Below are positions 3,701 to 20,932 of a stretch of DNA of 64,000 nucleotides, in pieces. The position numbers were made by a program, and so were the translations under genes. The notes under the pieces are model-generated. The model was given only the letters and a program-made list of their open reading frames with translations. It ran no database searches and was not told the origin of the DNA. Origin of the DNA: Alphaproteobacteria bacterium MarineAlpha5_Bin5 (GTDB lineage: Bacteria > Pseudomonadota > Alphaproteobacteria > HIMB59 > GCA-002718135); assembly GCA_002938205.1 (NCBI GenBank), contig PTKZ01000001.1, positions 9,354 to 73,353 of the forward strand. Reading direction: 5' to 3'. Numbering within the stretch: position 1 is the stretch's first letter; each line of letters begins with the position of its first letter.

Positions 3701-4711
3701 ATGCCAGAAAACAAGGATATATTAATAGATCAATTAATAGAAAAATATACTGAAAATCATAATTTGTCTGATCTGCATATTAGAAGTGATCAGCCTATGG
3801 CTATTCGTGAAAATGGAGAAATTATTACTTTTCCTGATGAAATTGTTTCAGGACACGATGTAAATAAATTTATTAAATCTCACCTTGATACTTATCACAC
3901 TGAAAAATTAGAAAATGACATGCAACTAGATACAGCTATTGTTGTAAAGGGAGTTCGTTATAGAGCTAATATATATCATTCCTTAAATGGAAATTGTATT
4001 GTTTTGCGTAAAATTGAAACAATTATCCCAGTTGTTGAAGAATTAAATATCCCACCTGCCGTTCTTGGTGCATGCGAATATAAAAATGGATTAATTTTAA
4101 TTACAGGACCCACAGGATCAGGAAAATCTACCACCTCAGCTGCAATCCTAAATAGAATAAATTTAACCAGACAAGAAAATATTATTACCATAGAAGATCC
4201 AATTGAATTTATTCATATGAATCAAATGTGTATTGTTTCGCAAAGAGAAATTGGAAAACATGTTACAAGTTTTGGTAATGGATTACGGGCAGCATTAAGA
4301 GAAGATCCTGATATTATTTTACTTGGAGAAATGCGTGACTATGAAACGGTTTCTGCAGCGCTAACGGCAGCAGAGACAGGACATTTAGTTTTGGGCACTT
4401 TGCATACCAATGGAGCACCAAATACTATTAATCGTTTAATAGATGTTTTTCCAGCTGCCCAACAGCCTCAAGCTCGTTCGATGCTTTCTCAATCTCTTCG
4501 TTTGGTTGTCACACAACAATTACATAAGAAAAAAGATGGCACTGGTAGAGTAGGAGCATATGAAGTTATGGTATGTAACAATGCCATTCAAAATTTAATT
4601 CGAGAAGATAAAGTTTTTCAAATACCTAGCATAATGCAAACTGCAATGGCTGAAGGAATGATTACCATGGAAAAATCTGTAGAAAATTTAAGAGCTATGG
4701 GGCAAATTTAA
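3701..4711 (+). CDS. pilT: Type IV pilus retraction ATPase PilT
   Basis: Walker A GPTGSGKST, TIEDPIE, LREDPD, ETGHLVLGTLH and the PilT-type AIQNLIRE motif. Confidence 0.93.
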   Translation: MPENKDILIDQLIEKYTENHNLSDLHIRSDQPMAIRENGEIITFPDEIVSGHDVNKFIKSHLDTYHTEKLENDMQLDTAIVVKGVRYRANIYHSLNGNCIVLRKIETIIPVVEELNIPPAVLGACEYKNGLILITGPTGSGKSTTSAAILNRINLTRQENIITIEDPIEFIHMNQMCIVSQREIGKHVTSFGNGLRAALREDPDIILLGEMRDYETVSAALTAAETGHLVLGTLHTNGAPNTINRLIDVFPAAQQPQARSMLSQSLRLVVTQQLHKKKDGTGRVGAYEVMVCNNAIQNLIREDKVFQIPSIMQTAMAEGMITMEKSVENLRAMGQI

Positions 4712-4722
4712 TTTAAGAATAA

Positions 4723-5346
4723 ATGAAAAACAAAAAAGGGTTTTCATTAATTGAATTTTTAGTTGTTGTTGCTTTAATTGGGGTATTATCGATGTTTTTT
4801 TATACTCCAAAAACAACAAGGTGGAATAATGAAGTTGCAAGTGCGCAATCTAAAATTGTAAGTTTGTTAAAATATTATCAAAAAAAATCAATGCGTGATG
4901 GTTATAAATATTATGTGAATCTTAAACTTAACACCGCACAAGAAACATTTTCTATGGCAGCCTTTGTTGATAAAAATATCACGTCGCGGCAATCAGTTTG
5001 CACATCTAGTACAGATTCAAATTTTTCAGAAAGACGACTTTTTGATACACTAAAAAACATTCGCGTGTTAGGATGTAAAAGCGGCGGCAAATCATGTAGA
5101 AATACAAGCTCTAATAATATGGGTATTTGTTTTTTTCCTAATGGATCATCAGCAGCCGTAGATGATAGGAAAGAATGGTATATATTTCACTCTGCGGGAG
5201 ATAATACAACTCATGCGAGGAATGCATATAAATTTGTAGTATGGAAAACGACATCATTTATAGAAACTTCCACGTGTAGAGGAAATGCAACTTATGCTAA
5301 TATATCTTCCAGAGCACTTAGTTGTTCAAAATGGATAGAAGAATGA
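4723..5346 (+). CDS. Minor pilin, FimT/FimU/GspH-like
   Basis: Class III signal KG|FSLIE; first gene of the minor-pilin cluster; FFPNG motif. Confidence 0.75.
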   Translation: MKNKKGFSLIEFLVVVALIGVLSMFFYTPKTTRWNNEVASAQSKIVSLLKYYQKKSMRDGYKYYVNLKLNTAQETFSMAAFVDKNITSRQSVCTSSTDSNFSERRLFDTLKNIRVLGCKSGGKSCRNTSSNNMGICFFPNGSSAAVDDRKEWYIFHSAGDNTTHARNAYKFVVWKTTSFIETSTCRGNATYANISSRALSCSKWIEE

Positions 5347-5867
5347 GAAAAAAAAATACTTTATATTCTAAAGGGGTATCTATTATTGAGGCTTTATTAG
5401 CTGCTGTGATTGTAGGGATTGGATTTATTTCTGTCTATACAATGACGACAACGGCAACAAGAATGATCTATAGTGCATCACAAAGAGATAATGATACATT
5501 ATCAACTGCTATGATCATGGATGATATGGCCCTGGATAATTTTTCTGTTGCTGATACTGCCTATCATGAATCAATTTCTTCAAGTAAGTACAACAATCTT
5601 GACTTAACAAAAGGATGTGGTGCTGCTCCTACTGGGTCACCAAAACAAAAAGATAGACAAAAAGTTCGATGGTGTAATTTTTTAAAACTTAAAAAAGGTG
5701 GAATGGGTGATGTAGGCACTGGTGATGTAAGGAAAATGTATGTACGAAAAATTACTATTACTGCAAATGGATATGCCCAAACATATAAAGTGATGGGACT
5801 TAGGGTTGAGCATAAATCAAAAAATAGAAATCAAAAAAAATATTATAGAAAAATTATTCATGAATAA
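5343..5867 (+). CDS. Minor pilin PilV-like
   Basis: KG|VSIIEALLA; probable start ATG 5343 overlapping the upstream stop; position in the cluster. Confidence 0.7.
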   Translation: MRKKNTLYSKGVSIIEALLAAVIVGIGFISVYTMTTTATRMIYSASQRDNDTLSTAMIMDDMALDNFSVADTAYHESISSSKYNNLDLTKGCGAAPTGSPKQKDRQKVRWCNFLKLKKGGMGDVGTGDVRKMYVRKITITANGYAQTYKVMGLRVEHKSKNRNQKKYYRKIIHE

Positions 5868-6723
5868 AAATAATTTAAATAAAGGCTTCACACTGCCAGA
5901 AATTTTGGTTTCAACTGCAATTGGAGCTATCATCCTCGCTGCCCTCTTTGTCTCTTTTATTATGTTTCAACGATCCTATGAACTCCAAAGAGAAATGACA
6001 CGTAATCAAGAAAATGGACGAATGACGCTTGATTTTATGGTGGAAGAAATTCGTAATGCTGGATACAGACATTTTAATAAAGGTAGCCCTGTACCAATTA
6101 ATCAAGCAGTAATATTAGAATCACCTACGACCAATTCAAATCCTAGTGGGACACTTCCTCAAGATTGCGGTGAGAAAATTTCAGTCATGTATGACATTGT
6201 TCCAAATCAAAAAGATATGGGTACTTATAATTTCATAAGACGTATTGTAAAATACTATGGAGAACAATATTCCCCAGGAGGAGTGACGGCTTTATCTCGT
6301 TGTCGTTTAAAGCGTCATCAATGTCATTACGGATATGATAGTTCCACAGGAAAATTTGCTCAAATTTCTACAGCTAAAGCTAAAGATTATCCGTGTGAAG
6401 AGGAAACAATTTTAGATTATTTATATGAACTAAGCTTCTCTTTTTCAGATTATAAATATGATCATTTTGCAGGACGACTTAATCCTCTCACAAGAGGAGC
6501 GAAATCTTCGTACAATTATGCAAATTCAGGGTGCATAAATGATTTCAAGAAAAACGTTGCTTGCGGACAATATTCTCCTCGAGCGCGTGCAATAGATATG
6601 CATTTAAGTATTGTATCAGGTAATGAAATTAGTAGCGTTCCCGATGATCCCACCGATAATCCTGATAAGGGCAAACGTTTTTTAACTTATTATAATGCAA
6701 CTATGGTGTTGCGTAACATATGA
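5860..6723 (+). CDS. Minor pilin PilW-like
   Basis: KG|FTLPE; QENGRMTLDFMVEEIRNAGY is typical of PilW; C-terminal VLRN. Probable start 5860. Confidence 0.8.
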   Translation: MNKNNLNKGFTLPEILVSTAIGAIILAALFVSFIMFQRSYELQREMTRNQENGRMTLDFMVEEIRNAGYRHFNKGSPVPINQAVILESPTTNSNPSGTLPQDCGEKISVMYDIVPNQKDMGTYNFIRRIVKYYGEQYSPGGVTALSRCRLKRHQCHYGYDSSTGKFAQISTAKAKDYPCEEETILDYLYELSFSFSDYKYDHFAGRLNPLTRGAKSSYNYANSGCINDFKKNVACGQYSPRARAIDMHLSIVSGNEISSVPDDPTDNPDKGKRFLTYYNATMVLRNI

Positions 6724-7463
6724 TACATATGAATAAAACACAAAGAGGCTTTGCTCTTGTTATTTCTTTATTATTATTATTAATGATGACGGTGATGGGT
6801 ATCACCATGATTGCTCGATCGAATTTAAACACCAACATGTCCGTTGAATATGATAAGTCAGAACATATTTTTATTGCTGCTGAGGCAGGCATAGAGCATG
6901 CAAGACGGTATTTAGAAAATATGTCTTCAAAGAACCAATATCCTGGCAATAACAAAGGTCCTTTAACTGCAACACCTGCAAATAGATGTTTAGCAGATTA
7001 TAAAGATGGACAAGGATCGCCCTATGATACACTAGGGAAAGATAGTGGAAAATATGCGTATACGTTTCCAGCCCAGCAAACAAATGGAGTAGTCTTAAAT
7101 ACTCAAATGTCATGTAAAAATTTAAATTCTGGACAAAATGATAAAAATTTTAGACGTATGGATTGTGAGTTTGATTTAGATAATGATGCAACCTCTAATC
7201 AAAATGAAAGAAACTTTTTTAAAACATTTGGATTTAGTTACTATATTTTTTATGAAGGAGAATCGAGTACTGCAGGAGGGTCTGGTTCCTCAGGTGTGGG
7301 AACAGTTGGGACATCAAGTCAATATGCAGCAAGCAAACAAGATTCAGCATATTATTATCAAGTGATATCCTGCGGGGCTTCATTTGCTTGGGATGGGAAA
7401 AGTCAAAATGCCACTCTAAAACAAATTCAATCTCTGGAAGCAAGAATAAAGCTAGAGAAATAG
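6720..7463 (+). CDS. Minor pilin PilX-like
   Basis: RG|FALVISLLLL lacking Glu5, plus the AAEAGIE motif typical of PilX. Confidence 0.8.
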   Translation: MIHMNKTQRGFALVISLLLLLMMTVMGITMIARSNLNTNMSVEYDKSEHIFIAAEAGIEHARRYLENMSSKNQYPGNNKGPLTATPANRCLADYKDGQGSPYDTLGKDSGKYAYTFPAQQTNGVVLNTQMSCKNLNSGQNDKNFRRMDCEFDLDNDATSNQNERNFFKTFGFSYYIFYEGESSTAGGSGSSGVGTVGTSSQYAASKQDSAYYYQVISCGASFAWDGKSQNATLKQIQSLEARIKLEK

Positions 7464-7547
7464 TTAATGTGTAATATTTATTATGATCAACATAGTTTTT
7501 TTAAAGTGTTAGTATATTGTTATTTTTATATGGTAGAATGTTAGCTT

Positions 7548-8114
7548 ATGAAGTGGTGTATCCTTATATTTATCATCATATTTACAAACCCGCTTTTAGC
7601 AAAGTGCAAAATTGACACGCATGCATTTGGCACTTCTGCTAAAACAATTCAACAATCGTTAAAAGATACATGGATTACTTCTGAGCCCATTCCTGGTGTT
7701 AATAAAACAGTTGGAACTAGTTTAGAATTAATATGCCCAGAGCTTAAAGGCTCTTCATTAGGAATGGAGACAATGTTTATCTATAATTTTATTAAAGATA
7801 AATTAGTTGCCATTGAACTAGTGTTACAAACAACGGATAAGCTTGAGTTGTTTGAATGGGGAAGACAATATTTTGGTATTATGGAAGAGCGTGATTTAGC
7901 TAAAGCGGAACAAGTTATACGCGTAGAAGATGGTAACCGCATTATCCAGTTATTTGTTGGTGTATTGCCTGATGTGACGTTTCAAAATGTTGTATTAATT
8001 TCAACAAAACATGATGATCTTTTTGAGTATCAATTTCAACAAGAAGATAATATGAACTGGGATACAAATGAAATATCTCCATTAGAACCAATTACTCTTG
8101 GAGAGGAGAACTAA
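7548..8114 (+). CDS. Hypothetical secreted protein
   Basis: Signal-peptide-like N-terminus; stop overlaps the pilY1 start (TAATG). Confidence 0.7.
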   Translation: MKWCILIFIIIFTNPLLAKCKIDTHAFGTSAKTIQQSLKDTWITSEPIPGVNKTVGTSLELICPELKGSSLGMETMFIYNFIKDKLVAIELVLQTTDKLELFEWGRQYFGIMEERDLAKAEQVIRVEDGNRIIQLFVGVLPDVTFQNVVLISTKHDDLFEYQFQQEDNMNWDTNEISPLEPITLGEEN

Positions 8115-11100
8115 TGCGCTCTATTCTCATCCCTCTCATAACTGGAGTACTACTCTCTTTTCCTATTTTGGCTAAAGGACCCCCTCCTGGAACAGGAGTA
8201 GGAGATGTAAAGGCCAACATCATGATTATGCTGGATGATTCAGGGAGTATGAGTGCCAGAGATCCTGCGCCAGGAATGTCTCATTGCACTTATGCTGTGG
8301 ATGTTGCTAATAATGGTGACATATTTACAGCAGACCCTTGCTATCACAAAGTTACCCGCCTTGATTCTGCTTATAAAGTTAAATCAACATTCGGTGGATC
8401 ATATAATTGGTATAGCAATGTAAATGGTATCGCAGCCTATTACCAACCTTGGTCCCTTGCATTGGATCAAGCGGACAGTACCGATGAGTATGTTTTCGTA
8501 GGCCGCTATCATGCAAGAGGAGCTGGAAGTTTTGGATCAAGCTCAAGATATAGCACAATCCTTAAAGTGTGCACAGGTATCACCACAACAGCTGCCTGTC
8601 CGAAAGCTGGAACACTTGTCGCCGTTAACGACAAACAAAACAATCAATACTATTCTATGGGTTTGGCCGTCCAAGGAAACTATGTTTACAGCCTATCCCA
8701 TCCACATATGCATATTCAAAAATACAATAAATCTGATTTAAGTTTTGTTACAAGTAGAACTAACATAAGGCAACAGGATTTTAATAACCGTTTTAACTAC
8801 AGATATGATGCCATTGCAGCTGTAGGGGACTATGTTTATGTTTCAAATTATAGAATTAGAAAAATTTGCCGCTATAATGCGTCTAATTTAAGCAATGCTA
8901 ATTTTTCAAATGGACAACATTGCATTACTTCGCCTAATTATCAATGGAGAGGGCTAGCTGCTTCAGGGAAAACAACCACATCAACGGCTGATGATTTTTT
9001 ATATACATGGACTCATAGAAATTCTCAAGGAACGATCCATAAATTTAATGCAAATTCCGGTGCCTTTGTTACGCGTTTTGCTCGAAGAGGTACCTCCACT
9101 GGACAAACCTATCATATCTATAGAGGAATAGGGGTTGATCCAAGTGGCAATGTATATGTTCCTGAGGCGGGATACTCTAACAGAACATGGGTCTCTAAAT
9201 TTACTAGTGCAGGTACATATGTATCACGGGGACCCAAATCAGCAAATCAAGGCAACAGGATGAAAATAGCTCATACGGCTATTCGTGCTATCTTAAAGGA
9301 CCCTGATTTAACGGCGGGGGCCAATTTTGGCATTATGTCTTGGGGATCAAAGTTTGTCATTCGCACTAAAATTTCTCCAAAAGGAGCAAATCAAATCTTA
9401 AATAAAACGCTACGGAAAATTTATCCAAGGGGCGGTACATATTTAGGAAGAGCAATTCAGCATGTGCGAACACGATATTGGCATAAATCAGGTGAAACAC
9501 CAATAGATCTTGGGGCAAAATGTCAGGGCAATTTTAATTTAGTCATTAGTGATGGGGCATACTGGGGAAGCCCGACGCCTGAACAGGAAATACCTAAATT
9601 AAGCAAACACTCCACAATGCCGGTTAAAACATTTATTGTTGGTCTTGGAAATTCTATTTATGGATATTCAAAATATACCACACTTGCTTCTTCAAAGTAC
9701 GGGGATACAACTCCACCAGGCCCTCTATTTGCTAATAATGTTACAACATTAACCCAGCAATTACGCTCTGCTATTTTAGCAGCCATTAACGGTAATTTGA
9801 CATTTACATCGCCAAAGGTTGATTTTAGCTCGACGCCAAATGGGTATATATGTCAACCGTCCTTTAAATATAAAGAGGCTGATCAATGGCAAGGACTGCT
9901 TACACGTTATGAAATTAAACAGGATGGTAGTATTGATGATCCAACAGGACAAGATCCTAATAAAACAATTCGTTTCCATAAAAAACTGGATGGTCGTTCC
10001 TCTTTAGTCACTAACTCAAACGGGCGAAAAGTATGGACTGTTGATCAGGATATTGAAAACCCAACATCAGGTGTTTATAAAAATAATAATTTTGATCCCG
10101 AGTATTCTACGGGCAGTCAAAATTTAGTAGATGCAAGCACGTATAATCTCATGACGGGTGGGGATACTTTACTAGGAAAACGTGATGTTGCGCGTATCAT
10201 GCGGTTTATGCGCGGACAAGATATGTTTGATCAAGATTCAGATTGTAAAAATATTAAAGCGATAAACTTTAATAATAAATGTTATACAGAAGATAAAGGC
10301 AGTACTGATGCGCCTTTACTTTATAAACTCCATGATTTGTATAACTCCGTTCCAGCCTATGTGGGTCCTCCTACAGCTCTAGCTTCTCCGGATATCAAAA
10401 ATACGGAGAACGAATATCGATATCAAAATAATTATGCAGCTTTTAAAAACAAACATAAAAATAGAAAGAATGCTTTAATCATAGGATCCAATGGAGGCAT
10501 GATTCATGCTTTTGATAATGGATGCAAAACAGCAAATGCTACCTGTACAACCGCATCTAATCCAGGTTCTGAGTTATGGGCTTTTGTACCGCCTTCTATT
10601 ATCCAAAACTTTAAATATATTGTTACCCCTCAAAAATACACAAAGCTTGATGCAGATGTAGGTACTAGTGATACAACTCTTACTGTTAATAGTACTTCAA
10701 ATTTCTCTAGCTCGGGGGAAATACGTATTAACAATGAGTTCATGCGCTATACAGGTAAAACATCTACAACCTTTACCGGTGTCACAAGAGGATATGATTG
10801 TTCAAGCAACGCACCATTCTGTGATGATGCAACTGCACATTCATCAGATGATATTGTCTATAATGAAACAACGGTCAGAAAACCTGAATATTCTGTATTT
10901 GGTGTAGATGGTCCTATTGTGGCAAAAGATATTTATACAGATGGAAACTGGAAAACAATTGCAATCGCAGGCTATGGTAAGGGAGGACGCGGTTTAACTG
11001 CTCTTAATATTACTAATCCTGATAATCCTGTTCATATGTTTAGCATTCTTAATGAAATTCAGGGACCTGGTTTATCTAGAGCCATTAAACTTTGGCAAAC

Positions 11101-12637
11101 GACGTACAATACAAGTTCAAAAGTGTATGAAACAAAACTAACTGATTATAGCTATAGTATGAACGTTGAGACAACAACTCTAGCAGCAGCTGTTAGTGCC
11201 ACTGAAACAGCAACAATACCCGTTAGTGATGCAAGTAAATTTGCAAGTGCCGGATATATAACGGTGACTAACAGCGATGGAAATAATGAAGTTATTTATT
11301 ACGGGAGTAAAAGCGGAAATAATCTTAAAAGTTTAATCCGCTCCGAAGATACCAGCGGTAATTCTAATGCTATTGCTCTTGAATCAGGAGCAGCCGTATC
11401 ACAAGATTCTTCATGCACCGTTGCTGCAACAAATGTACCAGCTGAATACGATTATACCCGTTTAGGATTAACCACGTCGATGCCACAAATTCTTAATTTG
11501 AAAATTAGTGGTAAGAAAAAATGGGTAGCTGTTTTTGGTGCTGGTCAAAATTATGGTAAAGATTGTACTACAGGTAATGCTGTCTATGTAATGGATTTAG
11601 AAGATAGTCCGGGAGAGATTATAAAACAAATCGTTATTCCAGATGATCCAAATAACTCTATATATAATACTGTTAATGCTAATGTTGCTATAGTGCAAAG
11701 AGACGGTACCACAAAAGCTGATTATTACGGAGCTATTGCCTACGTAGCGGATTTGGAAAATAAATTATGGAAGATTGATTTAACAGATAAAGCAGGCTCG
11801 CAATTTGGTCGTAAAGTGAAATTATTTGAAGATGTTGCAACCGATGATAATGGTCGCCGCAATTACCAAGAAATTTTACCAGTTCTCGATTCAAGCCAAA
11901 ATGTTCAGATGGGTGGCTCTAAGATTGAGAGTAATATTTTACGGTTATACTGGGGAACTGGTGATATGGATAATTTGGCAGACCGATCTAATAAAATAGT
12001 TAATCGTCTCTATGGTATCTCTGACCTAACATTTACAAATTTTGGTATAACGTGGCAGCCAGCGGATGATGTAAGTAATAAAAGTGCTCTATATCGATTA
12101 GCGGATTGTTATAATTCTACATCTCTAGCTTCTGCAACATGTCCTGTGCTCTCCAATGTGGGAACAAAAAATATTGGATGGTATATTACTTTACCTAAGC
12201 AACGCAAAACAACAGGAAGAAGACCGCTATATGATAAAGAGCAAGTTTATTTTGTTGTGTATGAACCAACAACGAAATTGTGTAGCCCTGGGGATGCTAT
12301 TTTAGGAACGTATGGCTATATGTGTCCTAATTATAAAAGATTAGTGGTGGCATTAGGGGCAGGTGTTGCAACCGGTGCGACTACACAGGGTAGTCAAATA
12401 TATATTGGTGTCTCCAATGCTGGCACGACAGGAACATATAAAAGAGGAGATATACTGGAGCAAAAAGGATCAGGATTTGGCGTTTCAGGTTCAGCTGCTG
12501 CTATTGCGAAAGATGTGAAAGATAATACTAAAGGAACAGATAGCATTATTGTTCTATCGCCAGTAGGCACAGCATCCACAGGTAAGAGTTCAATTGATGC
12601 ATGGCGTCATTATACTGGTGAAAATTACTTTGATTAA
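8114..12637 (+). CDS. pilY1: PilY1/PilC-type pilus tip adhesin (vWA + inserted beta-propeller + PilY1 C-terminal domain)
   Basis: Signal peptide; MIDAS DDSGS; PilY1 motifs WQGLL, LHDLYNSVP, GSNGGMIHAF, ELWAFVP, FGVDGP, WKTI, GKGGRG, YWGTG, GWYI; follows pilX. Confidence 0.88.
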   Translation: MRSILIPLITGVLLSFPILAKGPPPGTGVGDVKANIMIMLDDSGSMSARDPAPGMSHCTYAVDVANNGDIFTADPCYHKVTRLDSAYKVKSTFGGSYNWYSNVNGIAAYYQPWSLALDQADSTDEYVFVGRYHARGAGSFGSSSRYSTILKVCTGITTTAACPKAGTLVAVNDKQNNQYYSMGLAVQGNYVYSLSHPHMHIQKYNKSDLSFVTSRTNIRQQDFNNRFNYRYDAIAAVGDYVYVSNYRIRKICRYNASNLSNANFSNGQHCITSPNYQWRGLAASGKTTTSTADDFLYTWTHRNSQGTIHKFNANSGAFVTRFARRGTSTGQTYHIYRGIGVDPSGNVYVPEAGYSNRTWVSKFTSAGTYVSRGPKSANQGNRMKIAHTAIRAILKDPDLTAGANFGIMSWGSKFVIRTKISPKGANQILNKTLRKIYPRGGTYLGRAIQHVRTRYWHKSGETPIDLGAKCQGNFNLVISDGAYWGSPTPEQEIPKLSKHSTMPVKTFIVGLGNSIYGYSKYTTLASSKYGDTTPPGPLFANNVTTLTQQLRSAILAAINGNLTFTSPKVDFSSTPNGYICQPSFKYKEADQWQGLLTRYEIKQDGSIDDPTGQDPNKTIRFHKKLDGRSSLVTNSNGRKVWTVDQDIENPTSGVYKNNNFDPEYSTGSQNLVDASTYNLMTGGDTLLGKRDVARIMRFMRGQDMFDQDSDCKNIKAINFNNKCYTEDKGSTDAPLLYKLHDLYNSVPAYVGPPTALASPDIKNTENEYRYQNNYAAFKNKHKNRKNALIIGSNGGMIHAFDNGCKTANATCTTASNPGSELWAFVPPSIIQNFKYIVTPQKYTKLDADVGTSDTTLTVNSTSNFSSSGEIRINNEFMRYTGKTSTTFTGVTRGYDCSSNAPFCDDATAHSSDDIVYNETTVRKPEYSVFGVDGPIVAKDIYTDGNWKTIAIAGYGKGGRGLTALNITNPDNPVHMFSILNEIQGPGLSRAIKLWQTTYNTSSKVYETKLTDYSYSMNVETTTLAAAVSATETATIPVSDASKFASAGYITVTNSDGNNEVIYYGSKSGNNLKSLIRSEDTSGNSNAIALESGAAVSQDSSCTVAATNVPAEYDYTRLGLTTSMPQILNLKISGKKKWVAVFGAGQNYGKDCTTGNAVYVMDLEDSPGEIIKQIVIPDDPNNSIYNTVNANVAIVQRDGTTKADYYGAIAYVADLENKLWKIDLTDKAGSQFGRKVKLFEDVATDDNGRRNYQEILPVLDSSQNVQMGGSKIESNILRLYWGTGDMDNLADRSNKIVNRLYGISDLTFTNFGITWQPADDVSNKSALYRLADCYNSTSLASATCPVLSNVGTKNIGWYITLPKQRKTTGRRPLYDKEQVYFVVYEPTTKLCSPGDAILGTYGYMCPNYKRLVVALGAGVATGATTQGSQIYIGVSNAGTTGTYKRGDILEQKGSGFGVSGSAAAIAKDVKDNTKGTDSIIVLSPVGTASTGKSSIDAWRHYTGENYFD

Positions 12638-12677
12638 TAATCAAGACTAAATGATTTAAATATAGTTATTGAACGAA

Positions 12678-13055
12678 CTAAATTTGTTTAAGTACACCGA
12701 TAATCTTGGCACCATTATTACTTATAGATTTGTAAAAAATTTTACCTTTTACAACTGCATTGTGCTCTAAATATAATGCTTCTTTTACAGTTAACTCACC
12801 CTCAAACTTACCTGCAATTGTAGCATTATTAACTTCAAAATTTCCAATTAAAGATGCATTTGATTTAATATAAAGACGTTCTAATTTAAAAGATTTTTTT
12901 TTATTAATATCAATTTTTGCTAATTCTTCAACATTACCTTCAACAATAACACCTGCAGAAATTTCCTTTGTTTCACTATTAAGTTTATTAACTGCTCTTC
13001 TTCGAAGTTTTGCTTTTCGCTCAAACTCTTCTTTAATTATATTATCTTGATTCAT
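12678..13055 (-). CDS. Bactofilin (polymer-forming cytoskeletal protein)
   Basis: Beta-helix repeats IAGKFEGELTV, LEHNAVVKGKIFYKSI, GAKIIG. Confidence 0.75.
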   Translation of the reverse strand: MNQDNIIKEEFERKAKLRRRAVNKLNSETKEISAGVIVEGNVEELAKIDINKKKSFKLERLYIKSNASLIGNFEVNNATIAGKFEGELTVKEALYLEHNAVVKGKIFYKSISNNGAKIIGVLKQI

Positions 13056-13072
13056 TGTTTATCTTCATAATA

Positions 13073-13882
13073 TTATGTCAAATATATAGACTGTAAATAG
13101 TGTATTAGTATTTTTTCGGTATAATTAATTAATGGTAATCCTAGAAATATATAAATTAAAGTTGCTATAATTATATAAGGTCCAAAGGGTAATTGTGACT
13201 GAAAGTTTTTATTTTTACTAATTAAAATTATACTACCTATTATTACCCCGCTTAATGATGATACAATTAAAATAAACATAATGCCTTTAATCCCAAATAA
13301 AAAACCAAGAACGACGAATAGTTTTAAATCACCTAATCCCATACCTTCTATTTTTCTCACATATTGGTAAAAAACAATTAAGCCTCCTATGAACAGAAAG
13401 GCTATAAGGGCACCAAGTGCAGAAGGATATAAGGATGCAAAAATACTATCTAGATTAGGTAGAAATAATTTTCCTAAAGCTAAAATACCAATAAGTAGAA
13501 CTAGTGAATCAGGAATAATTAAATGTTTTAGATCAATAAAAAAGATTACTATAAATACAGGAATAAGAATTAAAAAGTAAACTAGATTTATACTTAAGCC
13601 ATATTTCCATCCAAAAAATAAAAAAAATAAAGCAGTCGATAATTCTACAATAAAATATCGTATTGTTATTTTATTTTGACAAAAAACACATTGGCCTCTT
13701 AAATATAAATAAGAAAATAAAGGAATATTATAATAAAAAGGAATAGGGGTTTTACAACTTGGACAATGTGATTTAGGTAAAATAATACTCTGCTGAATCG
13801 GGAGACGATATATGCAGACATTGGAAAAACTTCCTACCGCTAATCCCAACAAAAAATACACCGTTAGTTCAAATATTTGCAT
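13073..13882 (-). CDS. pilD: Prepilin peptidase/N-methyltransferase
   Basis: GSFSNVCIYRLP, CPSC...CVFC zinc motif, catalytic aspartates in FIDLK and GMGLGDLKL, LPFGPY. Confidence 0.95.
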   Translation of the reverse strand: MQIFELTVYFLLGLAVGSFSNVCIYRLPIQQSIILPKSHCPSCKTPIPFYYNIPLFSYLYLRGQCVFCQNKITIRYFIVELSTALFFLFFGWKYGLSINLVYFLILIPVFIVIFFIDLKHLIIPDSLVLLIGILALGKLFLPNLDSIFASLYPSALGALIAFLFIGGLIVFYQYVRKIEGMGLGDLKLFVVLGFLFGIKGIMFILIVSSLSGVIIGSIILISKNKNFQSQLPFGPYIIIATLIYIFLGLPLINYTEKILIHYLQSIYLT

Positions 13883-13905
13883 AAATTATCAATAAAAAAA
13901 TACTT

Positions 13906-16002
13906 TTACCCAATAACAAGTAAAGTTAAATCATCAGTCAGTTTTTCAGTAGTTTGTTGTATTGTTAATACAGTTTTTTCTACTTCTCTTTTAGGGGAAA
14001 GACCTTTATTTTTTTCTAATATTTGTTTTATTCCTTCTACGCCTAATTCTTCCCCTTTATTATTTATAGCTTCCGTAATTCCATCAGTAAAAATAAACAG
14101 CCGCTTATCTTTTAATGATATCGTTGTAGATATAAAAATATCAGATGATTCTTGTTTCATTACTCCTACAGGAATGCCTGCATCTGAATATTCTATAAAC
14201 TCCCCTTTGCTATCTCTTATTAATGGTGGTTGATGTCCAGCATTAGCCCAGGTAATTGTTTGATTTGTTAAATCATAAATACCAACAATCATTGTGATAA
14301 ACATTCCTTGTACGGAAGTTTCTGCTAATTCATTATTTGTTTCAAACAAAATTTCTTGGGGAGACATTTCATTTTTAGAAAAAACTTTAAATAATGTTGA
14401 TGCTTTTGCCATAACGATCCCAGCATTTACTCCTTTGCCTGATACGTCGCCTAGAGTAAAATAAAGTTTATTATTTATAGGAATATAATCAAAAAAATCG
14501 CCAGAAATTTCCCCTAAAGGTATATTAATTCCTGCTATTGGATATTGCTCTAAACTTACTGTTGGCAGAAGACTTTGTTGAACTTCGGCAGCTAAATTGA
14601 TTTCACTTAAGATACGCTTTCTCCATCTATCTAATTCAATCTTACTTTCTTCTAACTCTTGCATAATTCTATTATAATAAAACCCTATTTGTCCTGCATC
14701 GGTAAAAGGGTCCTGTGGCCCACGTAAAGACAGATCTTTAGTTTCCATTTGTTTTTTTAATATTTTTAATAGTTCGTAATTATCAGTGGACGCGTTATGC
14801 TCTACTATATTCAGACCTAATTCTTCTTGTACACGACTAACTCTCAGAGGAATTAAAAGATTAATGATAAAAATCAAAATATATGAAATACAAAAACTAT
14901 AAGCCCCAATAGATACAATTCCAATTACTTGAACCTTTAACTGGTTCCAGGTGTTCAGGTCAGTTCCTAACAAATTAGAATCACCAAATAACGCAACAGC
15001 AAGAGTACCCCAAATACCAGCAAATAAATGAACAGGTATTGCCCCAACAACATCATCAACTTTTAATTTCTCTAAAAAGCTGTTACCATAACTTGCAATA
15101 ATACCTCCTATAATACCTATGACAATGGCACTAAGTTGATCAACAGCATGGCAAGCAGCTGTAATAGAGACTAATCCTGCTAACGGACCATTAATAATAT
15201 AATGAGATTCAACTTTTTTTAATACAACATATCCAAAAACTAAACTGGCTATTAGACCAGCAGCAGCAGATAAAAAAGTATTTACCAATATTAAGGGAAC
15301 TGTATCATCTAAAGTTCCGTTACTTCCTCCGTTAAAACCAAACCAACCAAACCATAAAATTAACGTTCCAAGAGCTGCTAAGGGAAGATTGCTTCCATTA
15401 AATTTTTGTACGGAATTATTTTTTTTAAAGCGACCAAAGCGAGGACCAATAATAATTGCTGCACTAAAAGCTATCCACCCACCTATACTATGAACAATTG
15501 TACTACCGGCAAAATCAACAAATCCAATTTTACCTAACCATCCCATAGAATTTGTAAGGGCTATGGCAGGATCGCGATTTAAATCGGCCCAAGCCCAATG
15601 ACCAGCAACAGGATAAATTAATAACGCTGTTATAAACGTTATATATAAATAACCAAAAAATTTTAATCGCTCTGCTACTACACCTGAAATAATTGAGGCT
15701 GCTGTTGCAACAAACATTGCCTGAAAAACAAAAAAACTTTGATTTAGAGCATTATCGGAAACAAAAAAAAAGCTATCCGTTCCAAAAAATCCGCCCATGG
15801 ATGAGCCAAACATAATCCCAAACCCAATTGCCCAAAAAACACTTACTGAGACACCAAAGTCAGCAATATTTTTTAAAGCAACATTAATATTATTTTTTTT
15901 TCTTGATAAGCCCGCTTCTAAGCACATAAAGCCAGCTTGCATTATAAATACAAGAATAGCACTTATAAGTACCCATAAAGTATCTATTTGTTGTTCGATC
16001 AT
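13906..16002 (-). CDS. Ammonium transporter (Amt) fused to a C-terminal SpoIIE/PP2C Ser/Thr phosphatase
   Basis: Amt motifs MQAGF, GHWAW, DFAGSTIVH, LWFGWFGFNGGS, DDVVGAIPVH, EELGL. Then a coiled coil and PP2C motifs SGDFFD, DVSGKG, NAGH, TDGITE, DDLT. Confidence 0.92.
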   Translation of the reverse strand: MIEQQIDTLWVLISAILVFIMQAGFMCLEAGLSRKKNNINVALKNIADFGVSVSVFWAIGFGIMFGSSMGGFFGTDSFFFVSDNALNQSFFVFQAMFVATAASIISGVVAERLKFFGYLYITFITALLIYPVAGHWAWADLNRDPAIALTNSMGWLGKIGFVDFAGSTIVHSIGGWIAFSAAIIIGPRFGRFKKNNSVQKFNGSNLPLAALGTLILWFGWFGFNGGSNGTLDDTVPLILVNTFLSAAAGLIASLVFGYVVLKKVESHYIINGPLAGLVSITAACHAVDQLSAIVIGIIGGIIASYGNSFLEKLKVDDVVGAIPVHLFAGIWGTLAVALFGDSNLLGTDLNTWNQLKVQVIGIVSIGAYSFCISYILIFIINLLIPLRVSRVQEELGLNIVEHNASTDNYELLKILKKQMETKDLSLRGPQDPFTDAGQIGFYYNRIMQELEESKIELDRWRKRILSEINLAAEVQQSLLPTVSLEQYPIAGINIPLGEISGDFFDYIPINNKLYFTLGDVSGKGVNAGIVMAKASTLFKVFSKNEMSPQEILFETNNELAETSVQGMFITMIVGIYDLTNQTITWANAGHQPPLIRDSKGEFIEYSDAGIPVGVMKQESSDIFISTTISLKDKRLFIFTDGITEAINNKGEELGVEGIKQILEKNKGLSPKREVEKTVLTIQQTTEKLTDDLTLLVIG

Positions 16003-16169
16003 TATTTGTAATTACTGAGTTGCCACATTACATCAATTATTGATATTTGGGGTTAATACAATATTTTTTTCACAAAATTCGCCAAAATACCTAGAGATAA
16101 AAATTTTGATTATTTTTCATATTGAGGTATTGCAATCAACGTTATTTGGTAGTACGGGTTAGAAAAGAT

Positions 16170-16739
16170 ATGGTTGAAGAAGCAAAATTAGAAACTTTAC
16201 CAAAGAGCACTGTTGATCAAGGTAAACAGGTTTTTTTAAGTAAACATGATCGTGTTGGAGATAATCCTAATAAAATGGTTATTGGTAGTGGAACATCTTT
16301 TAAAGGTTCTGATATTAAAACTGACTATATTGAAATATACGGGAAAGTGGAGACAAGTATTCACTCAAAAATTATTTTCGTTGGCTCTTCTGCAGAAATT
16401 ATTGGACCAGTTACATGTGAGCAAATTGAAATACATGGATCAGTAAGCGGAGGCATCCAAGTCAATGGGAAAGCAACAATAAAAAAAACTGCTACAGTAG
16501 TTGGCACCTTGAGGTATCAAGTAATATCTGTTGAAGAGGGGGCAAGTGTTTATTCAGATTTACATTGTACAAATGCTGATCAAAAATTAGTTGATAAGAT
16601 CTCACATCTAAGAAAAACAATGAACCAGGGTGGATTAAATACTACCACAAAACTGGTTGTCGAAAATAAAGAGACTGCAATAGAGGAAGCCGCAAAAAAC
16701 GAAAAAGAGAAAAAAAAGAAGCGTTCGTTTTTTTCATAA
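16170..16739 (+). CDS. Bactofilin family protein with basic C-terminal tail
   Basis: Repeats VIGSGTSFKG, IFVGSSAEIIG, IHGSVSGGI, VVGTLRY..VEEGA; probable ATG at 16170. Confidence 0.85.
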   Translation: MVEEAKLETLPKSTVDQGKQVFLSKHDRVGDNPNKMVIGSGTSFKGSDIKTDYIEIYGKVETSIHSKIIFVGSSAEIIGPVTCEQIEIHGSVSGGIQVNGKATIKKTATVVGTLRYQVISVEEGASVYSDLHCTNADQKLVDKISHLRKTMNQGGLNTTTKLVVENKETAIEEAAKNEKEKKKKRSFFS

Positions 16740-16850
16740 AATTTTCTTATTAACATTTTTTTTTAATTACTTCTAAAATATTGCTTTTTGTGTTTAACAT
16801 ACTCGTTCAAATCAGCTACAATCTTAAAAATAAAATAATTAATCGGAGGC

Positions 16851-17231
16851 ATGCTTATGATTAAATATATTGGAATTATTCTAGCAATAATTTTTTTGAA
16901 TTTTTCTCAAGCTTACGGTGATGATGTTTCTGCCGAAATGAAAATAAAACTTCAAGATTTAATGAATAAATTTATTGAAGAAATATCTATTGATGGAAAA
17001 ATGATTTATATTGATACAAAATCAGATAAACTTAATGGATTATATTTTTCATCAGCTCATCCAATGTATGTTCCACATGGAAGTAATTTTTTCTTGTGTA
17101 CTTCAGGGATAGATGATGAGGGAAATGAACATTTGGTTGATTTTTATGCTCAAGAAACTAATGGTGAGTTTAAAATTGTTGATGTTTCTGTAGATAATAG
17201 AGAAACAACAAAAAAAATTTTAGGTATGTAA
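16851..17231 (+). CDS. Hypothetical secreted protein
   Basis: GGAGG RBS; signal peptide ending AYG; 32 nt upstream of the second PP2C gene. Confidence 0.75.
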   Translation: MLMIKYIGIILAIIFLNFSQAYGDDVSAEMKIKLQDLMNKFIEEISIDGKMIYIDTKSDKLNGLYFSSAHPMYVPHGSNFFLCTSGIDDEGNEHLVDFYAQETNGEFKIVDVSVDNRETTKKILGM

Positions 17232-17263
17232 GTTGAAATTTATAGCTTAAATATACAGCTATA

Positions 17264-18706
17264 ATGGGTTTTTTTAAAAAATTTATATTAGTAAGATATA
17301 CAATATTACTAGTGGCATTTTTGTTGCCACTGGTAATGTTTGTCGCATATTCTTATTATCAGTATCGATTAAATTCTATTACTGATGAATTAGTATTCAG
17401 AATAACATCCATAAATGACAACACAGATAATCGATATTCAGAAGAGTGGCGATGGAGACATATGAATGCTGAAAAAGATAGAAAGAAATTAGCATCTGAT
17501 CTACGAAATGAATTAAAATACTTATCAGCTATTCCATTCATTATTTGTGCAGAATTTGAAGAACCAATTTCAAAAAGAATATTTGGAGCATGGCCTGTTC
17601 CCCAATGTTCAATTATAAAGAAAGAAAGCACAAAAGTTTCAAGTAAGTTAAAAAATAATTCAGTTTTTAACTTATACTATGATCATTTCTATCCATCAAA
17701 AATTGTCAATGAAGAAATAGTTACTATTGCTTTTATAATTTCAAGCATTTTTTTATTTTTATTGTCAATTCTCATTCTTGCTAATTACTTGATAATTAGT
17801 CGACCAGTTAAAATGATTATTAATGCAATAAATGATTATAATAAAAATCATTCTGATTTTAATATTAAAACCAAAGATATGTTAGGTAAAACACACAATA
17901 AGGAAGATGAATTTGGTCGCATAGCACAATCGATGACTAGTCATGTTTCTGCTTCAGAAAAATATTTAAAAGAAATTAAATCACAACGAGCTCAAATGGT
18001 ACGAGATCTTGATGATGCAAGAAAATTACAAGATCATATTTTACCTAAAGTAAAAGATTCTTCCTTTCCTTTAGGTGTAATGAATAAAGCTGCAAAAGGA
18101 TTGTCAGGTGACTTTTATGATTTTATTCATTCTGATGAAGGAGATTGTTTTTTTATTTTAGCAGATGTTTCAGGAAAAGGAGTGCAGGCATCAGTTGTAA
18201 TGGTTTATGCTTTATCAATTTTTCGTCAAGAGGTGATGAATTCAAAAGATCTTAAAGAAATAGTAAAAAAAATTAATTACGGTATAGCAACCAATTTCCA
18301 AGGATTATTTATTACTGCCATTGTTGGGAGTTTTAATACAGTTTCAAAAAAAGTTGATTTTTTCAATGTTGGTCATAATCCTCCAATTTATCTTTCTGAG
18401 AAAGGTGATGTAGAACTTTTTTCTGCTTCAAGTGTGCCTATTGGTATAATGGAAGAATTAGATAGTAACTTAACCAAAGAAGAAAAAGATCTATCTAACG
18501 GAAGAATTTTCTTTTACACGGATGGTTTTCCTGAAACAATTGTTAATGGAAAAGAAATAGGGGAAGAAGGTTTAATCAAGAAAATCAAGAATTCTATAAC
18601 TAGCTCAGCACAAGAAACGACAAATAATGTAATGAAACAAGAAATATTTAATCCAGAAAAATTAGCAGATGATATGACTTTTATGACTTTAGGTCCTCTA
18701 AAATAG
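17264..18706 (+). CDS. Membrane sensor SpoIIE/RsbU-like PP2C phosphatase (TM-periplasmic-TM-HAMP-like-PP2C)
   Basis: Two TMs, HAMP-like segment (ISRPV...EDEFGRIA), PP2C motifs SGDFYD, ADVSGKG, NVGH, TDGFPE, DDMT. Confidence 0.9.
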   Translation: MGFFKKFILVRYTILLVAFLLPLVMFVAYSYYQYRLNSITDELVFRITSINDNTDNRYSEEWRWRHMNAEKDRKKLASDLRNELKYLSAIPFIICAEFEEPISKRIFGAWPVPQCSIIKKESTKVSSKLKNNSVFNLYYDHFYPSKIVNEEIVTIAFIISSIFLFLLSILILANYLIISRPVKMIINAINDYNKNHSDFNIKTKDMLGKTHNKEDEFGRIAQSMTSHVSASEKYLKEIKSQRAQMVRDLDDARKLQDHILPKVKDSSFPLGVMNKAAKGLSGDFYDFIHSDEGDCFFILADVSGKGVQASVVMVYALSIFRQEVMNSKDLKEIVKKINYGIATNFQGLFITAIVGSFNTVSKKVDFFNVGHNPPIYLSEKGDVELFSASSVPIGIMEELDSNLTKEEKDLSNGRIFFYTDGFPETIVNGKEIGEEGLIKKIKNSITSSAQETTNNVMKQEIFNPEKLADDMTFMTLGPLK

Positions 18707-18763
18707 GGGATTTTTTATATGTTTTTAAATAATTTTACTTAAACTGTTAATTTAATGGTCACA

Positions 18764-18828
18764 TTAATGTCTTTTTAATGTAATAAATAAGGATAAATTA
18801 GGATTGTAGATATTAACAAAAAATTAAC
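18764..18828. promoter_or_regulatory. Two putative CtrA boxes (TTAA-N7-TTAA) upstream of the major pilin
   Basis: TTAAtgtctttTTAA at 18764-18778 and TTAAcaaaaaaTTAAC at 18813-18828. The AT-rich background lowers specificity. Confidence 0.45.
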
Positions 18829-18868
18829 AGTAATACTAAATTATAATAACAAGTTTAAGGAGAACGCA

Positions 18869-19381
18869 ATGAACAAGTTTAAAAAGAGAGAAAAAGGTTT
18901 CAGTTTGATTGAGCTATTGGTTGTTGTTGCAATTATAGGTATTCTTGCAGCAGTGGGTATCGTAGCTTATTCAGGTTATACCGCTTCTGCTAAAGTGAAT
19001 GCAACTAAATCATCGCATGCAACTATAGTGAAATTTATTAATGCAGAAAAAACAAAATGTGATACAGGTGCTAGCGAAAATATGGGTGTGGTCGCAAAGA
19101 ATGGATCAAGTGCAAATGCAAAATGTAGTGATAATATAGGTGCTGGTAAAGCAACAACAGCTGCAAATACATTTAATGCCCATTTCGAAGGAAAAAAATT
19201 TAAAAATCCATATTCCTCTAGTAAAATGGCAACGGAGAGTTGTACAATAAATGATACAAATGTTGGTTGCACGCTTATTGAAAAAGATGGAAATGATAGT
19301 TTAAAAATATCTACTTGCTATGAAACAGCTTGCACTGCAACAGGCACAACTACATTAGTTGATATTATAAGTCTTAAATAA
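18869..19381 (+). CDS. pilA: Major type IVa pilin (PilA-like)
   Basis: Strong RBS AAGGAG, own 160-bp upstream region, KG|FSLIELLVVVAIIGILAAVG, Cys-rich variable C-terminus. Confidence 0.8.
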   Translation: MNKFKKREKGFSLIELLVVVAIIGILAAVGIVAYSGYTASAKVNATKSSHATIVKFINAEKTKCDTGASENMGVVAKNGSSANAKCSDNIGAGKATTAANTFNAHFEGKKFKNPYSSSKMATESCTINDTNVGCTLIEKDGNDSLKISTCYETACTATGTTTLVDIISLK

Positions 19382-19387
19382 ATATAA

Positions 19388-19822
19388 TTGAATAAGCGTT
19401 CTTTATATAACAAGGGGTTCTCTTTGATAGAACTCCTTGTTGTCGTTGGTATTATCGGTATTTTGGCTGCAGTGGGCATTGTATCCTATGTAGGTTACGT
19501 TGCAGGGGCTCAAAAGACTGATGCTCAAAATAATATGCAAGCAATGTATATGGTTCAAGAAGAATATAAAGCAAGTAATGCTTTAAACACTTATTACACA
19601 ACAAGTACTGGAAATACATGCACACCTAATTCTAGCAACCACAACAACATTAATACAAATTTATTTGGCGGCAAGGAGCAAATTGATATTTCTGATCCTA
19701 AATTTGTTTTCTGTATTGCTGGTGGTTCTGGTAGCGATGGAGGTTTTAAAATTTTTTCTCAAAGACCTGATGGTTCTGATCAAATGACTCTTAATGCTAA
19801 TAATGCAAAAAGCGGTTGGTAA
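19388..19822 (+). CDS. Type IV pilin, PilE-like
   Basis: KG|FSLIE; DAQNNMQAMYMVQEEY helix; C-terminal W typical of PilE; TTG start. Confidence 0.75.
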   Translation: MNKRSLYNKGFSLIELLVVVGIIGILAAVGIVSYVGYVAGAQKTDAQNNMQAMYMVQEEYKASNALNTYYTTSTGNTCTPNSSNHNNINTNLFGGKEQIDISDPKFVFCIAGGSGSDGGFKIFSQRPDGSDQMTLNANNAKSGW

Positions 19823-19826
19823 AAAA

Positions 19827-20168
19827 TTATTCCTGAATTGTATCTACAATTTTAAAAATACTATCAAGTCTAGCCAATTTAATTACTTTTAACACACCAG
19901 GACTTGTTTTAAATAAATAAAAATTTACTCCAGCTTTTACTGCTTGTTGATGAGAATGAATTAAACTCGCTATACCTGAAGAATCTATATAACTAACCTC
20001 TGATAAATCAGCATAAACAGATTTCGCTATTGTAAAATTATGTTCTTTCTTATTGATCTCTATTTGTGCTAAGATTTTTTCTTTAACTTCTGGAGATACG
20101 CTTAGATCAACTTCTCCTGATATACGCACCATTGATCCATTATTTATATTCTCTACAGTAATAGCCAT
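19827..20168 (-). CDS. STAS anti-sigma-factor antagonist (RsbV/SpoIIAA-like)
   Basis: SGEVDL, DLSEVSYIDSSG phosphoacceptor motif, LARLD. Confidence 0.92.
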   Translation of the reverse strand: MAITVENINNGSMVRISGEVDLSVSPEVKEKILAQIEINKKEHNFTIAKSVYADLSEVSYIDSSGIASLIHSHQQAVKAGVNFYLFKTSPGVLKVIKLARLDSIFKIVDTIQE

Positions 20169-20304
20169 AATTCAAAAAAATAATCTCCATACATATTATG
20201 ATTTATTATTATATCAAGAATTATATTGAGACATTAATTTATATTTTATTAATACAAAACTTCTTCTGGAAAATTTATTTTAATTTGTTAAAAGTTTACT
20301 ATTA

Positions 20305-20709
20305 ATGGAAGACACAAGGCTTGATATTGCTGCAACAGCAGAAAATTTAAAAGAAATAAGACAATTTGTAAGGAATTACATTGATAAATGTGGGGGGCTT
20401 GATCAATATAAAGATGAGTTGGTTTTAGCAATTGATGAAGCATGTCAGAATGTAGTGCGTCATGCCTACAAAGATATAAAGGGGGAAATAGCGCTTAAAT
20501 TAAGTTTCAAAAATAATGAGTTTATTGTTACAGTAGAAGATGATGGAACGCCTGCTATACCAGAAAAAATTAAACCAAGAAATCTTGATGATGTAAAACC
20601 AGGAGGACTCGGAACATTTTTTATTAATCAAATTATGGATAGCGTTTCTTTTCAATTATCTTCTCCCCATTGGACTAATTGTCTTATAATGAAAAAAAAA
20701 ATAAAATAA
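20305..20709 (+). CDS. RsbW/SpoIIAB-like anti-sigma Ser kinase (HATPase_c_2)
   Basis: LAIDEACQNVVRHAY N-box, VEDDG, GGLG...MD. Confidence 0.92.
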   Translation: MEDTRLDIAATAENLKEIRQFVRNYIDKCGGLDQYKDELVLAIDEACQNVVRHAYKDIKGEIALKLSFKNNEFIVTVEDDGTPAIPEKIKPRNLDDVKPGGLGTFFINQIMDSVSFQLSSPHWTNCLIMKKKIK

Positions 20710-20713
20710 AAAT

Positions 20714-20932
20714 GTGAATATTTTTCTATTTACTACAATAGCAGTAACAGCATTGACAATATTTGTTTTAATATATTCTTATTCTTTGCAATTTTTTAGT
20801 TTATCAAAAAAAGGAAAAGAATGGAGAGAACGAATTAAACAAGATACTTTAGTAGGTCTTGCTATTATTTTTTTAACTTTAATAAGTTGTTTTTTATGGG
20901 TGATTTTTATTTATTTTAGAATCTTTGTATAA
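20714..20932 (+). CDS. Small two-TM membrane protein
   Basis: Two hydrophobic segments; GTG start 4 nt after the kinase stop. Confidence 0.55.
   Translation: MNIFLFTTIAVTALTIFVLIYSYSLQFFSLSKKGKEWRERIKQDTLVGLAIIFLTLISCFLWVIFIYFRIFV

Follow-up and report, generated by a model that had tools for sequence, protein, structure and literature searches.

A probable ammonium receptor with a phosphatase output, encoded beside a STAS/RsbW-type kinase pair in a type IV pilus locus of a HIMB59-like marine alphaproteobacterium

The Amt membrane module is reused as a receptor in Ks-Amt5 of Candidatus Kuenenia stuttgartiensis, the output of which is described as phosphotransfer by a histidine kinase (PMC5764959). 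In Sd-Amt1 of Shewanella denitrificans, known from structures 8QJ3, 8QJ4 and 8QPF (PMC11152129), a helical linker connects the Amt domain to a C-terminal GGDEF cyclase. Amt-GI5 of SAR11 bacteria is a protein of 716 amino acids (aa) that joins an Amt domain and a HAMP-like linker to a phosphoprotein phosphatase (PPP) domain; it sits on a flexible genomic island and has been proposed to be an ammonium sensor (PMC11796062, Microbiome 2025). SAR11_0049 and SAR11_0050 of Candidatus Pelagibacter ubique HTCC1062 are of the same type, and that report states that no other PPP domain or cognate partner was found for Amt-GI5 (PMC11796062). The SAR11_0049 and SAR11_0050 proteins were detected at levels reported as unchanged under nitrogen limitation (Smith et al. 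2013, PMC3870248), as expected of a sensor. Here we describe an Amt-PP2C fusion gene of this architecture in a 64,000-nucleotide (nt) stretch of DNA, hereafter the window, from Alphaproteobacteria bacterium MarineAlpha5_Bin5 (contig PTKZ01000001.1), a member of a HIMB59-like order. Its product is 54–56% identical to Pelagibacteraceae members.

The gene very probably specifies an ammonium receptor that has a phosphatase as its output. The overall explanation that we favor, with somewhat better than even confidence, is an Sd-Amt1/Ks-Amt5-type receptor with a PP2C domain acting on a neighboring STAS/RsbW-type switch. In this respect the window goes beyond what is described for Amt-GI5, since genes for a second PP2C protein, a STAS protein and a kinase of the RsbW type lie within 7 kb (Table 1). 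A first-pass annotation of the window, made from the sequence without database searches, had recognized the fusion, but it left out the STAS and kinase genes 4 kb away, the likely substrate pair, as well as the pilus setting.

The Amt-PP2C gene is real. It is an unbroken frame of 698 aa with an ATG start in the open reading frame (ORF) listing. The Pfam family PF00909 (Ammonium_transp) matches at E 3.9e-113 (378.6 bits, cut-off 23.2, profile positions 1–397 of 399) and PF07228 (SpoIIE) at E 7.4e-39 (134.1 bits, cut-off 25, profile positions 4–189 of 192), and at 398.7 bits the match to the NCBIfam model TIGR00836 ‘amt’ exceeds the cut-off of 343.3. The annotation had the Amt domain continuing in frame into PP2C, which is borne out by this frame and its two domains, and every Amt motif that it named (VFQAMF, GHWAW, WFGFNGGS, STIVH and IPVH) is present in the translation. 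It had also proposed an architecture search for PF00909 plus PF07228 and a look at read coverage over the junction, which it placed at about 14600–14800, close to the linker as computed here. Both domains occur in all of the best 120 of 7805 database protein matches, which are 54–96% identical and come from several sources. At least half of the sampled sequence words were found in 15 DNA runs from 11 studies, one run of which could represent the sample of origin. Tiling contigs over the linker come from three DNA studies and one RNA library: pieces from run X2 cover 14368–15325 with no differences, record 25 of run X6 spans 14324–14739, and record 2 of X16, a 450-base contig from the RNA library, covers 14420–14869 and bridges PP2C, linker and Amt, although a contig from an RNA library does not by itself prove transcription. 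RNA runs X17–X20 had small word shares, and no support is drawn from them. No indels were found inside the fusion gene in the contigs of four runs aligned to the window. An assembly or frameshift artifact uniting two genes is thus refuted by the architecture of the homologs and the contigs across the junction; nothing in its favor was found, and its probability is close to nil.

The Amt part is most similar to receptors. Its closest solved structures are those of Sd-Amt1 (8qj3/8qpf, E 1.7e-119), aligned over aa 5–452 and hence into the linker, followed by 6eu6 (E 2.2e-94), which we take to be Ks-Amt5. Assimilatory Amts lie far behind (Af-Amt1, 2b2f, E 4.3e-49; Escherichia coli AmtB, E about 4e-35). 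In Sd-Amt1 the receptor residues Q22, F25, E29, N45, F49 and T104 surround two internal ammonium sites, and N269, in place of a serine, narrows the cytoplasmic exit (PMC11152129). The residue numbering of the structure alignment agrees with that of the paper. The first five of these residues are the same in the fusion, S103 replaces T104, and N271 corresponds to N269. F97, F223, S227, H171 and H325, which include the vestibule serine, the phenylalanine gate and the histidine pair, align with F98, F221, S225, H169 and H323 of Sd-Amt1 and are invariant in 29/29 aligned family members, as are, with regard to the vestibule tryptophan, W136 and W138 of the GHWAW motif, which is aligned to GHWAW of Sd-Amt1. 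The published signature of the N1/N2 receptor site is Q-X6-E-X15-N-X2-D-F/T-X54-60-T-X2-S/T (PMC11152129). Its head is exact in the fusion (Q22, E29, N45, D48, F49) and is found in 119 of the 120 homologs.

Other features of the Amt domain weigh against a receptor. The window protein differs from Sd-Amt1 not only in the serine for T104 but also in having one residue fewer between the halves of the signature: the tail reads S103-X2-S106 at a spacing of 53, as compared to the published 54–60. The spacing is 53 in all 119 homologs with the head, with threonine in 110 and serine in 9. N271 is not kept across the family, the consensus of the 29 aligned members being leucine. Moreover, plant AMT1 transporters are reported to share the signature cluster (PMC11152129), and for this reason the sequence is also compatible with transport.

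These features raise the alternative of a transceptor or regulated transporter, which still imports ammonium while the PP2C domain either sends a parallel signal or controls the transporter, for instance by removing an inhibitory phosphate, as in the C-terminal phospho-control of plant AMT1. It is consistent with the retention of all of the pore elements listed above, with the inclusion of plant AMT1 in the N1/N2 cluster, with the replacement of the exit-narrowing asparagine by leucine in most family members, and with the presence of just one other Amt in the host genome. On the other hand, both characterized relatives with the site are reported to bind rather than transport ammonium (PMC11152129), and the other Amt (443 aa, C34:86617-87861), a separate protein that the genome has kept, is without the signature head. 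The usual targets of SpoIIE-type PP2Cs are STAS proteins, one of which is encoded close by. The clade is also confined to long frames. When 201 Pelagibacteraceae genomes (including one unpublished genome, G129, a negative) were searched with the window Amt domain at E ≤ 1e-90, 51 matches were obtained in 38 genomes; 49 lie in frames of 705–756 aa, and the other two are fragments at contig ends. We therefore consider a transporting form unlikely. The annotation's view of a sensor rather than a bulk transporter accordingly stands as to its nearest relatives, Sd-Amt1 and 6eu6, and its N1/N2 ligands, and is weakened where transport is concerned. Its remark that no glnK/PII gene is adjacent is correct: the sole P-II match of the genome is at C34:1376-1696, about 85 kb from the other Amt, and the fusion is on C1. 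Its remark that it knew of no characterized PP2C-output version is correct as to biochemistry, but the type was already in print as the putative sensor Amt-GI5 (PMC11796062).

The PP2C domain appears to be catalytically competent. The motifs SGDFFD, GDVSGKG, NAGH, FTDG and DDLT are present in the translation, and D502, D519, D640, D690 and D691, together with GDVSGKG and NAGH, are invariant in 29/29 aligned family members, in keeping with the complete set of metal-binding aspartate motifs claimed in the annotation. The aspartates and both motifs align with the SpoIIE structures 5mqh, 3t91 and 5ucg, in which the corresponding aspartates bind metal; structures of RssB and Rv1364c were aligned too. 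The best solved match of the domain is RssB of Pseudomonas aeruginosa (3eq2, E 4e-14), which brings up the alternative of an RssB-like adaptor without catalytic activity, the sole function of which would be to bind partners. With the metal-binding aspartates invariant throughout the family and aligned with those of SpoIIE, a dead adaptor is very unlikely.

How ammonium might be coupled to the phosphatase is suggested by two bodies of work. RsbU is reported to be dimerized and activated by coiled-coil linkers, and AlphaFold2 models predict the same linker geometry behind HAMP, PAS, GAF and receiver sensors (2025 eLife, PMC12143880). For Sd-Amt1 it was proposed that, on activation, two of the three HAMP linkers pair and so dimerize the transducer (PMC11152129). 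The two models are mutually compatible, and by analogy they may carry over to the fusion: its linker aligns to that of Sd-Amt1 up to aa 452, is HAMP-like by that alignment, and as a helical linker ahead of PP2C fits the general activation model of the RsbU type (PMC12143880). The AlphaFold2 model of the full-length protein has a mean pLDDT (predicted local distance difference test) of 65.7 and a predicted template modeling score of 0.48. The PP2C block, with pLDDT mostly 65–93, is the sole confident part; with no more than 29 close relatives in the alignment, the Amt part and the linker came out poorly defined. Four low-confidence helices appear in the linker region, among them aa 409–421, 435–450 and 454–477. 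The pLDDT below 50 in the linker, as well as the lack of a Pfam match to a HAMP domain in the fusion protein, detract from this part of the explanation.

The most likely substrate of the fusion is the neighboring STAS protein, to judge from the following comparisons. The host genome, which is 1.58 Mb and 92% complete, has two SpoIIE, one STAS and one HATPase_c_2 matches above cut-off, and all of them fall within 13906–20709 of the window. The D-S-S-G phospho-site motif of the STAS protein is invariant in 23/23 family sequences, and the family profile matches TM1442, RsbV and SpoIIAA. In an alignment with RsbW (6m36), the kinase retains both the N-box and the GGLG G-box. The set of three genes, for a SpoIIE-family PP2C, a serine-bearing STAS protein and a small GHKL kinase, is like RsbU/RsbV/RsbW and SpoIIE/SpoIIAA/SpoIIAB of Bacillus subtilis. 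Unlike the Bacillus switches, the window has a membrane Amt sensor and a pilus-gene setting, and no cognate sigma factor was found. The host genome's only two Sigma70_r2 matches (frame lengths 755 and 288 aa) both fall outside the locus, and there is no dedicated alternative sigma factor in the 92%-complete genome. A structure prediction for the complex of PP2C (aa 440–698) with STAS scored 0.22 (mark 0.32) and, having been run without controls, counts neither way.

As no cognate sigma factor was found, the system probably belongs with non-canonical partner switches such as HmpUVW, SypA/E or BtrUVW. Hormogonium motility is driven by pili. HmpU/HmpV/HmpW of Nostoc punctiforme, described as encoded in a hormogonium motility and polysaccharide locus, with the dephosphorylated STAS protein as the active form, is likewise a partner switch for which no sigma target is known (PMC8256260). 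It belongs to a different phylum and has no Amt input, and it is likened to the window by description and not by sequence comparison. SypA/E and BtrUVW are given as further non-canonical partner switches (review, PMC8256260). No text linking an Amt phosphatase with a STAS/RsbW pair was found in the literature, figures and supplements being outside the search.

The linkage of the fusion to the kinase is conserved in SAR11. In loci L001, L004 and L005, where the fusion is 54–55% identical to the window protein, the genes for PilQ, PilB and PilC are followed by those for the kinase and the STAS protein on one strand, and then by two pilins and Amt-PP2C on the other. Among the 201 Pelagibacteraceae genomes, a SpoIIE domain was found in 77, PilC in 85, and a kinase of the small RsbW type (E ≤ 1e-15, frame lengths 132–163 aa) in 73. 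PP2C and PilC accompany the kinase in every one of these 73; the kinase is present in 73/77 PP2C carriers and in none of the 124 PP2C-negative genomes. PilC is likewise missing from the four PP2C carriers without the kinase, three of which have their PP2C match ≤5 kb from the start of a contig. In 32 of the 38 fusion carriers, the fusion and the kinase are 1.7–3.3 kb apart and the Amt fusion is the PP2C nearest to the kinase. Two paralog classes of the fusion are often found in tandem in these carriers.

These counts have to be set against others that do not favor the linkage or its tie to pili. The distance between fusion and kinase is 21–30 kb in 3/38 carriers and >400 kb in 2/38, and in 1/38 the two are on split contigs. 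Of 85 PilC-bearing genomes, 12 have neither PP2C nor the kinase, so pili can do without the switch. Fisher tests on co-occurrence gave tiny P values, which overstate the case because related genomes are not independent. It might be supposed that the substrate of the PP2C domain is some other phosphoprotein, such as a pilus component, and that other sensor-PP2Cs serve the STAS/kinase pair. Carriers often have two to four PP2Cs, such as those around pilD in the genome G001 described below, and the fusion is far from the kinase in five of the 38 carriers. Against this supposition are the near-complete co-occurrence of kinase and PP2C, the position of the Amt fusion as the PP2C nearest to the kinase in 32 of 38 carriers, and the domain annotations of the locus, which include no Hanks-type kinase context. 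We regard a different substrate as distinctly unlikely and retain the STAS protein as the best candidate.

The proposed sequence of events is modeled on the systems described above. Ammonium would enter the pore and occupy the N1/N2 site, and the C-terminal helix would shift. Two of the three linkers might then pair, so that the PP2C domains dimerize and become active, as proposed for the Sd-Amt1 cyclase and for RsbU-type phosphatases. The kinase is predicted to phosphorylate the conserved serine of the STAS protein, and the active PP2C domain would remove that phosphate; thus, where Ks-Amt5 is described as passing on phosphate from a histidine kinase (PMC5764959), the fusion would take phosphate away in a serine switch. 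The unphosphorylated STAS protein would bind the kinase and alter the effect of kinase or STAS on a third partner. The second membrane sensor-PP2C probably feeds the same switch. Ammonium binding, phosphatase activity, substrate and output are all inferred, which tempers the whole scheme. A pilus-related output is plausible and is the most likely one, because a dedicated alternative sigma factor is lacking and type IV pilus genes surround the module, but it is the weakest step. A more extended proposal is offered tentatively, as possible rather than probable: external NH4+, acting through the Amt receptor, would set STAS phosphorylation and thereby control type IV pili (piliation, attachment, DNA uptake), with several sensor phosphatases (Amt, CHASE2, GAF, membrane) integrated and the system traveling with the pilus island between SAR11 and HIMB59 as a form of nitrogen sensing independent of P-II.

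Many SAR11 genomes hold two to four SpoIIE-domain proteins of about 430, 540, 670–700, 720 and 750 aa. This differs from the statement that there is no other PPP domain in the gMED genomes (PMC11796062), and may reflect a difference in population or search method. In G001, a SAR11 single-cell amplified genome (SAG), pilD is flanked at L099:2146-6380 by a divergent gene for a GAF-PP2C of 429 aa and by one for a CHASE2-PP2C of 671 aa, the start of the latter overlapping the pilD stop by 4 nt; pilD is therefore tied to sensor phosphatases in this genome too. Several sensor-PP2C inputs to a single STAS/kinase pair would be typical of a partner switch with multiple inputs. A 732-aa ORF beside the kinase in L004 was considered as a further PP2C and rejected, as it is an autotransporter.

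The carrier of the fusion differs from those of Amt-GI5. Among 80 genomes of the HIMB59-like host order, only the window's own has a SpoIIE domain, and the locus is hence a rare flexible island in this lineage. The only stand-alone STAS protein in these genomes is also that of the window; the other 35 STAS matches are in frames of 534–548 aa and, from this length, are taken to be SulP-type transporters. PilC was found in four of the 80 genomes. In G031, G052 and G056, PilC is near contig ends with neither PP2C nor stand-alone STAS, which speaks against a fixed tie between the pilus genes and the switch. The YidC protein of the window is 77–81% identical to those of uncultured Alphaproteobacteria SAGs and 79% to that of a metagenome-assembled genome with ‘HIMB59’ in its contig name, and ≤47% to all other matches listed; there are no Pelagibacteraceae among the best 80. 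In comparisons with four SAR11 genomes, identity was 52–54% for the fusion (best segment), 45–46% for YidC and 37–40% for DnaX. The locus has perhaps been shared laterally between SAR11 and the host lineage, although the excess identity of the fusion is only suggestive of transfer because channel domains are conserved. In one SAR11 genome (G002:C8:37416-39026), the DnaX match contains three in-frame stops (one TGA, two TAA), which could point to a frameshift site, an inactivated gene or an error in sequencing. No tRNA marking an island border was found in the window.

In a protein atlas, 13 clusters with the fused architecture were among the 30 best matches, one of them a cluster of 57 proteins with Verrucomicrobiota as the commonest phylum. 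As a lead, this suggests that the fusion may not be confined to SAR11-like Alphaproteobacteria. A candidate from Leptospira kemamanensis (L041, tblastn match to residues 3–666) was rejected as a fusion, for it consists of two separate genes: at L041:7266-10572, a GAF-SpoIIE-TPR gene (622 aa) is 10 nt upstream of an Amt gene (475 aa), an unfused pair. This genome has 27 STAS matches.

SAR11 and its neighbors rank with the most abundant ocean cells. In cultured SAR11, the standard P-II/Ntr sensing of nitrogen is reported to be missing (PMC3870248). If the more extended proposal is true, streamlined ocean bacteria would have a P-II-independent route for sensing nitrogen. A receptor that passes external ammonium on to a serine-phospho switch would represent the third type of output for Amt receptors, after the histidine kinase and the diguanylate cyclase. 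Should the switch control pili, nutrient patches would be linked to attachment or DNA uptake in SAR11 and its neighbors. The fusion as such was already in print and is not a new kind of protein. What is added here is a divergent carrier from an order new for the fusion, with the whole module together in one stretch, along with the quantified STAS/kinase linkage and a likely substrate pair, which provides the published ‘orphan’ sensor with a concrete candidate substrate.

Table 1. Coordinates of the Amt-PP2C gene, its parts and the neighboring genes (window positions, except for PilC)
Feature	Position	Strand	Basis and remarks
Amt-PP2C fusion gene	13906..16002	-	One ORF, PF00909 + PF07228, TIGR00836 above cut-off
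Amt membrane domain (probable ammonium receptor type), aa 9–405	14788..15978	-	Pfam; aligned to Sd-Amt1 8qj3
Helical linker, aa 406–511	14470..14787	-	Alignment to Sd-Amt1 linker; AlphaFold2 helices; contigs crossing
SpoIIE-type PP2C (PPM) domain, aa 512–697	13912..14469	-	Pfam; invariant aspartates; structure alignments; AlphaFold2
Prepilin peptidase PilD	13073..13882	-	23 nt downstream of fusion; A24_N_bact + Peptidase_A24 (Pfam)
Bactofilin	12678..13055	-	17 nt past pilD; PF04519
Second bactofilin	16122..16739	+	Divergent to fusion gene; PF04519
126-aa protein, hydrophobic N-terminus (by eye)	16851..17231	+	ORF; 32 nt upstream of second PP2C gene
Second sensor phosphatase with a pair of hydrophobic stretches (by eye), SpoIIE PP2C aa 292–476	17264..18706	+	Pfam
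Type IV pilin, N_methyl motif	18869..19381	+	Pfam
Type IV pilin, N_methyl motif	19388..19822	+	Pfam
Stand-alone STAS, anti-sigma-factor-antagonist type, 113 aa, D62-S63-S64-G65	19827..20168	-	Pfam, TIGR00377; proposed substrate
RsbW-type serine kinase/anti-sigma-like protein, 134 aa	20305..20709	+	HATPase_c_2 E 1.8e-24
PilM-PilN fusion	1747-3513	-	Pfam
PilT-like ATPase	3701-4711	+	Pfam
Minor pilins + PilX	4723-8114	+	Pfam
1507-aa VWA-domain protein in PilY1 position	8114-12637	+	Pfam
PilC	G000:C1:4294-5277		Just upstream of window

Scans of positions 12400–20900 gave 59 promoter-like sites (48.9 ± 7.8 expected) and 5 terminator-like sites (3.5 ± 1.9 expected); both are at chance level, and no operon claim is built on them. 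The 126-aa protein, which has no Pfam match, might be a periplasmic partner of the adjoining membrane sensor-PP2C. The Amt-PP2C/pilD pair is flanked by the two bactofilin genes within the pilus locus. The G+C content of the VWA gene region (8001–12000) is 0.37–0.40, compared to the 0.25–0.30 that is usual in the window.

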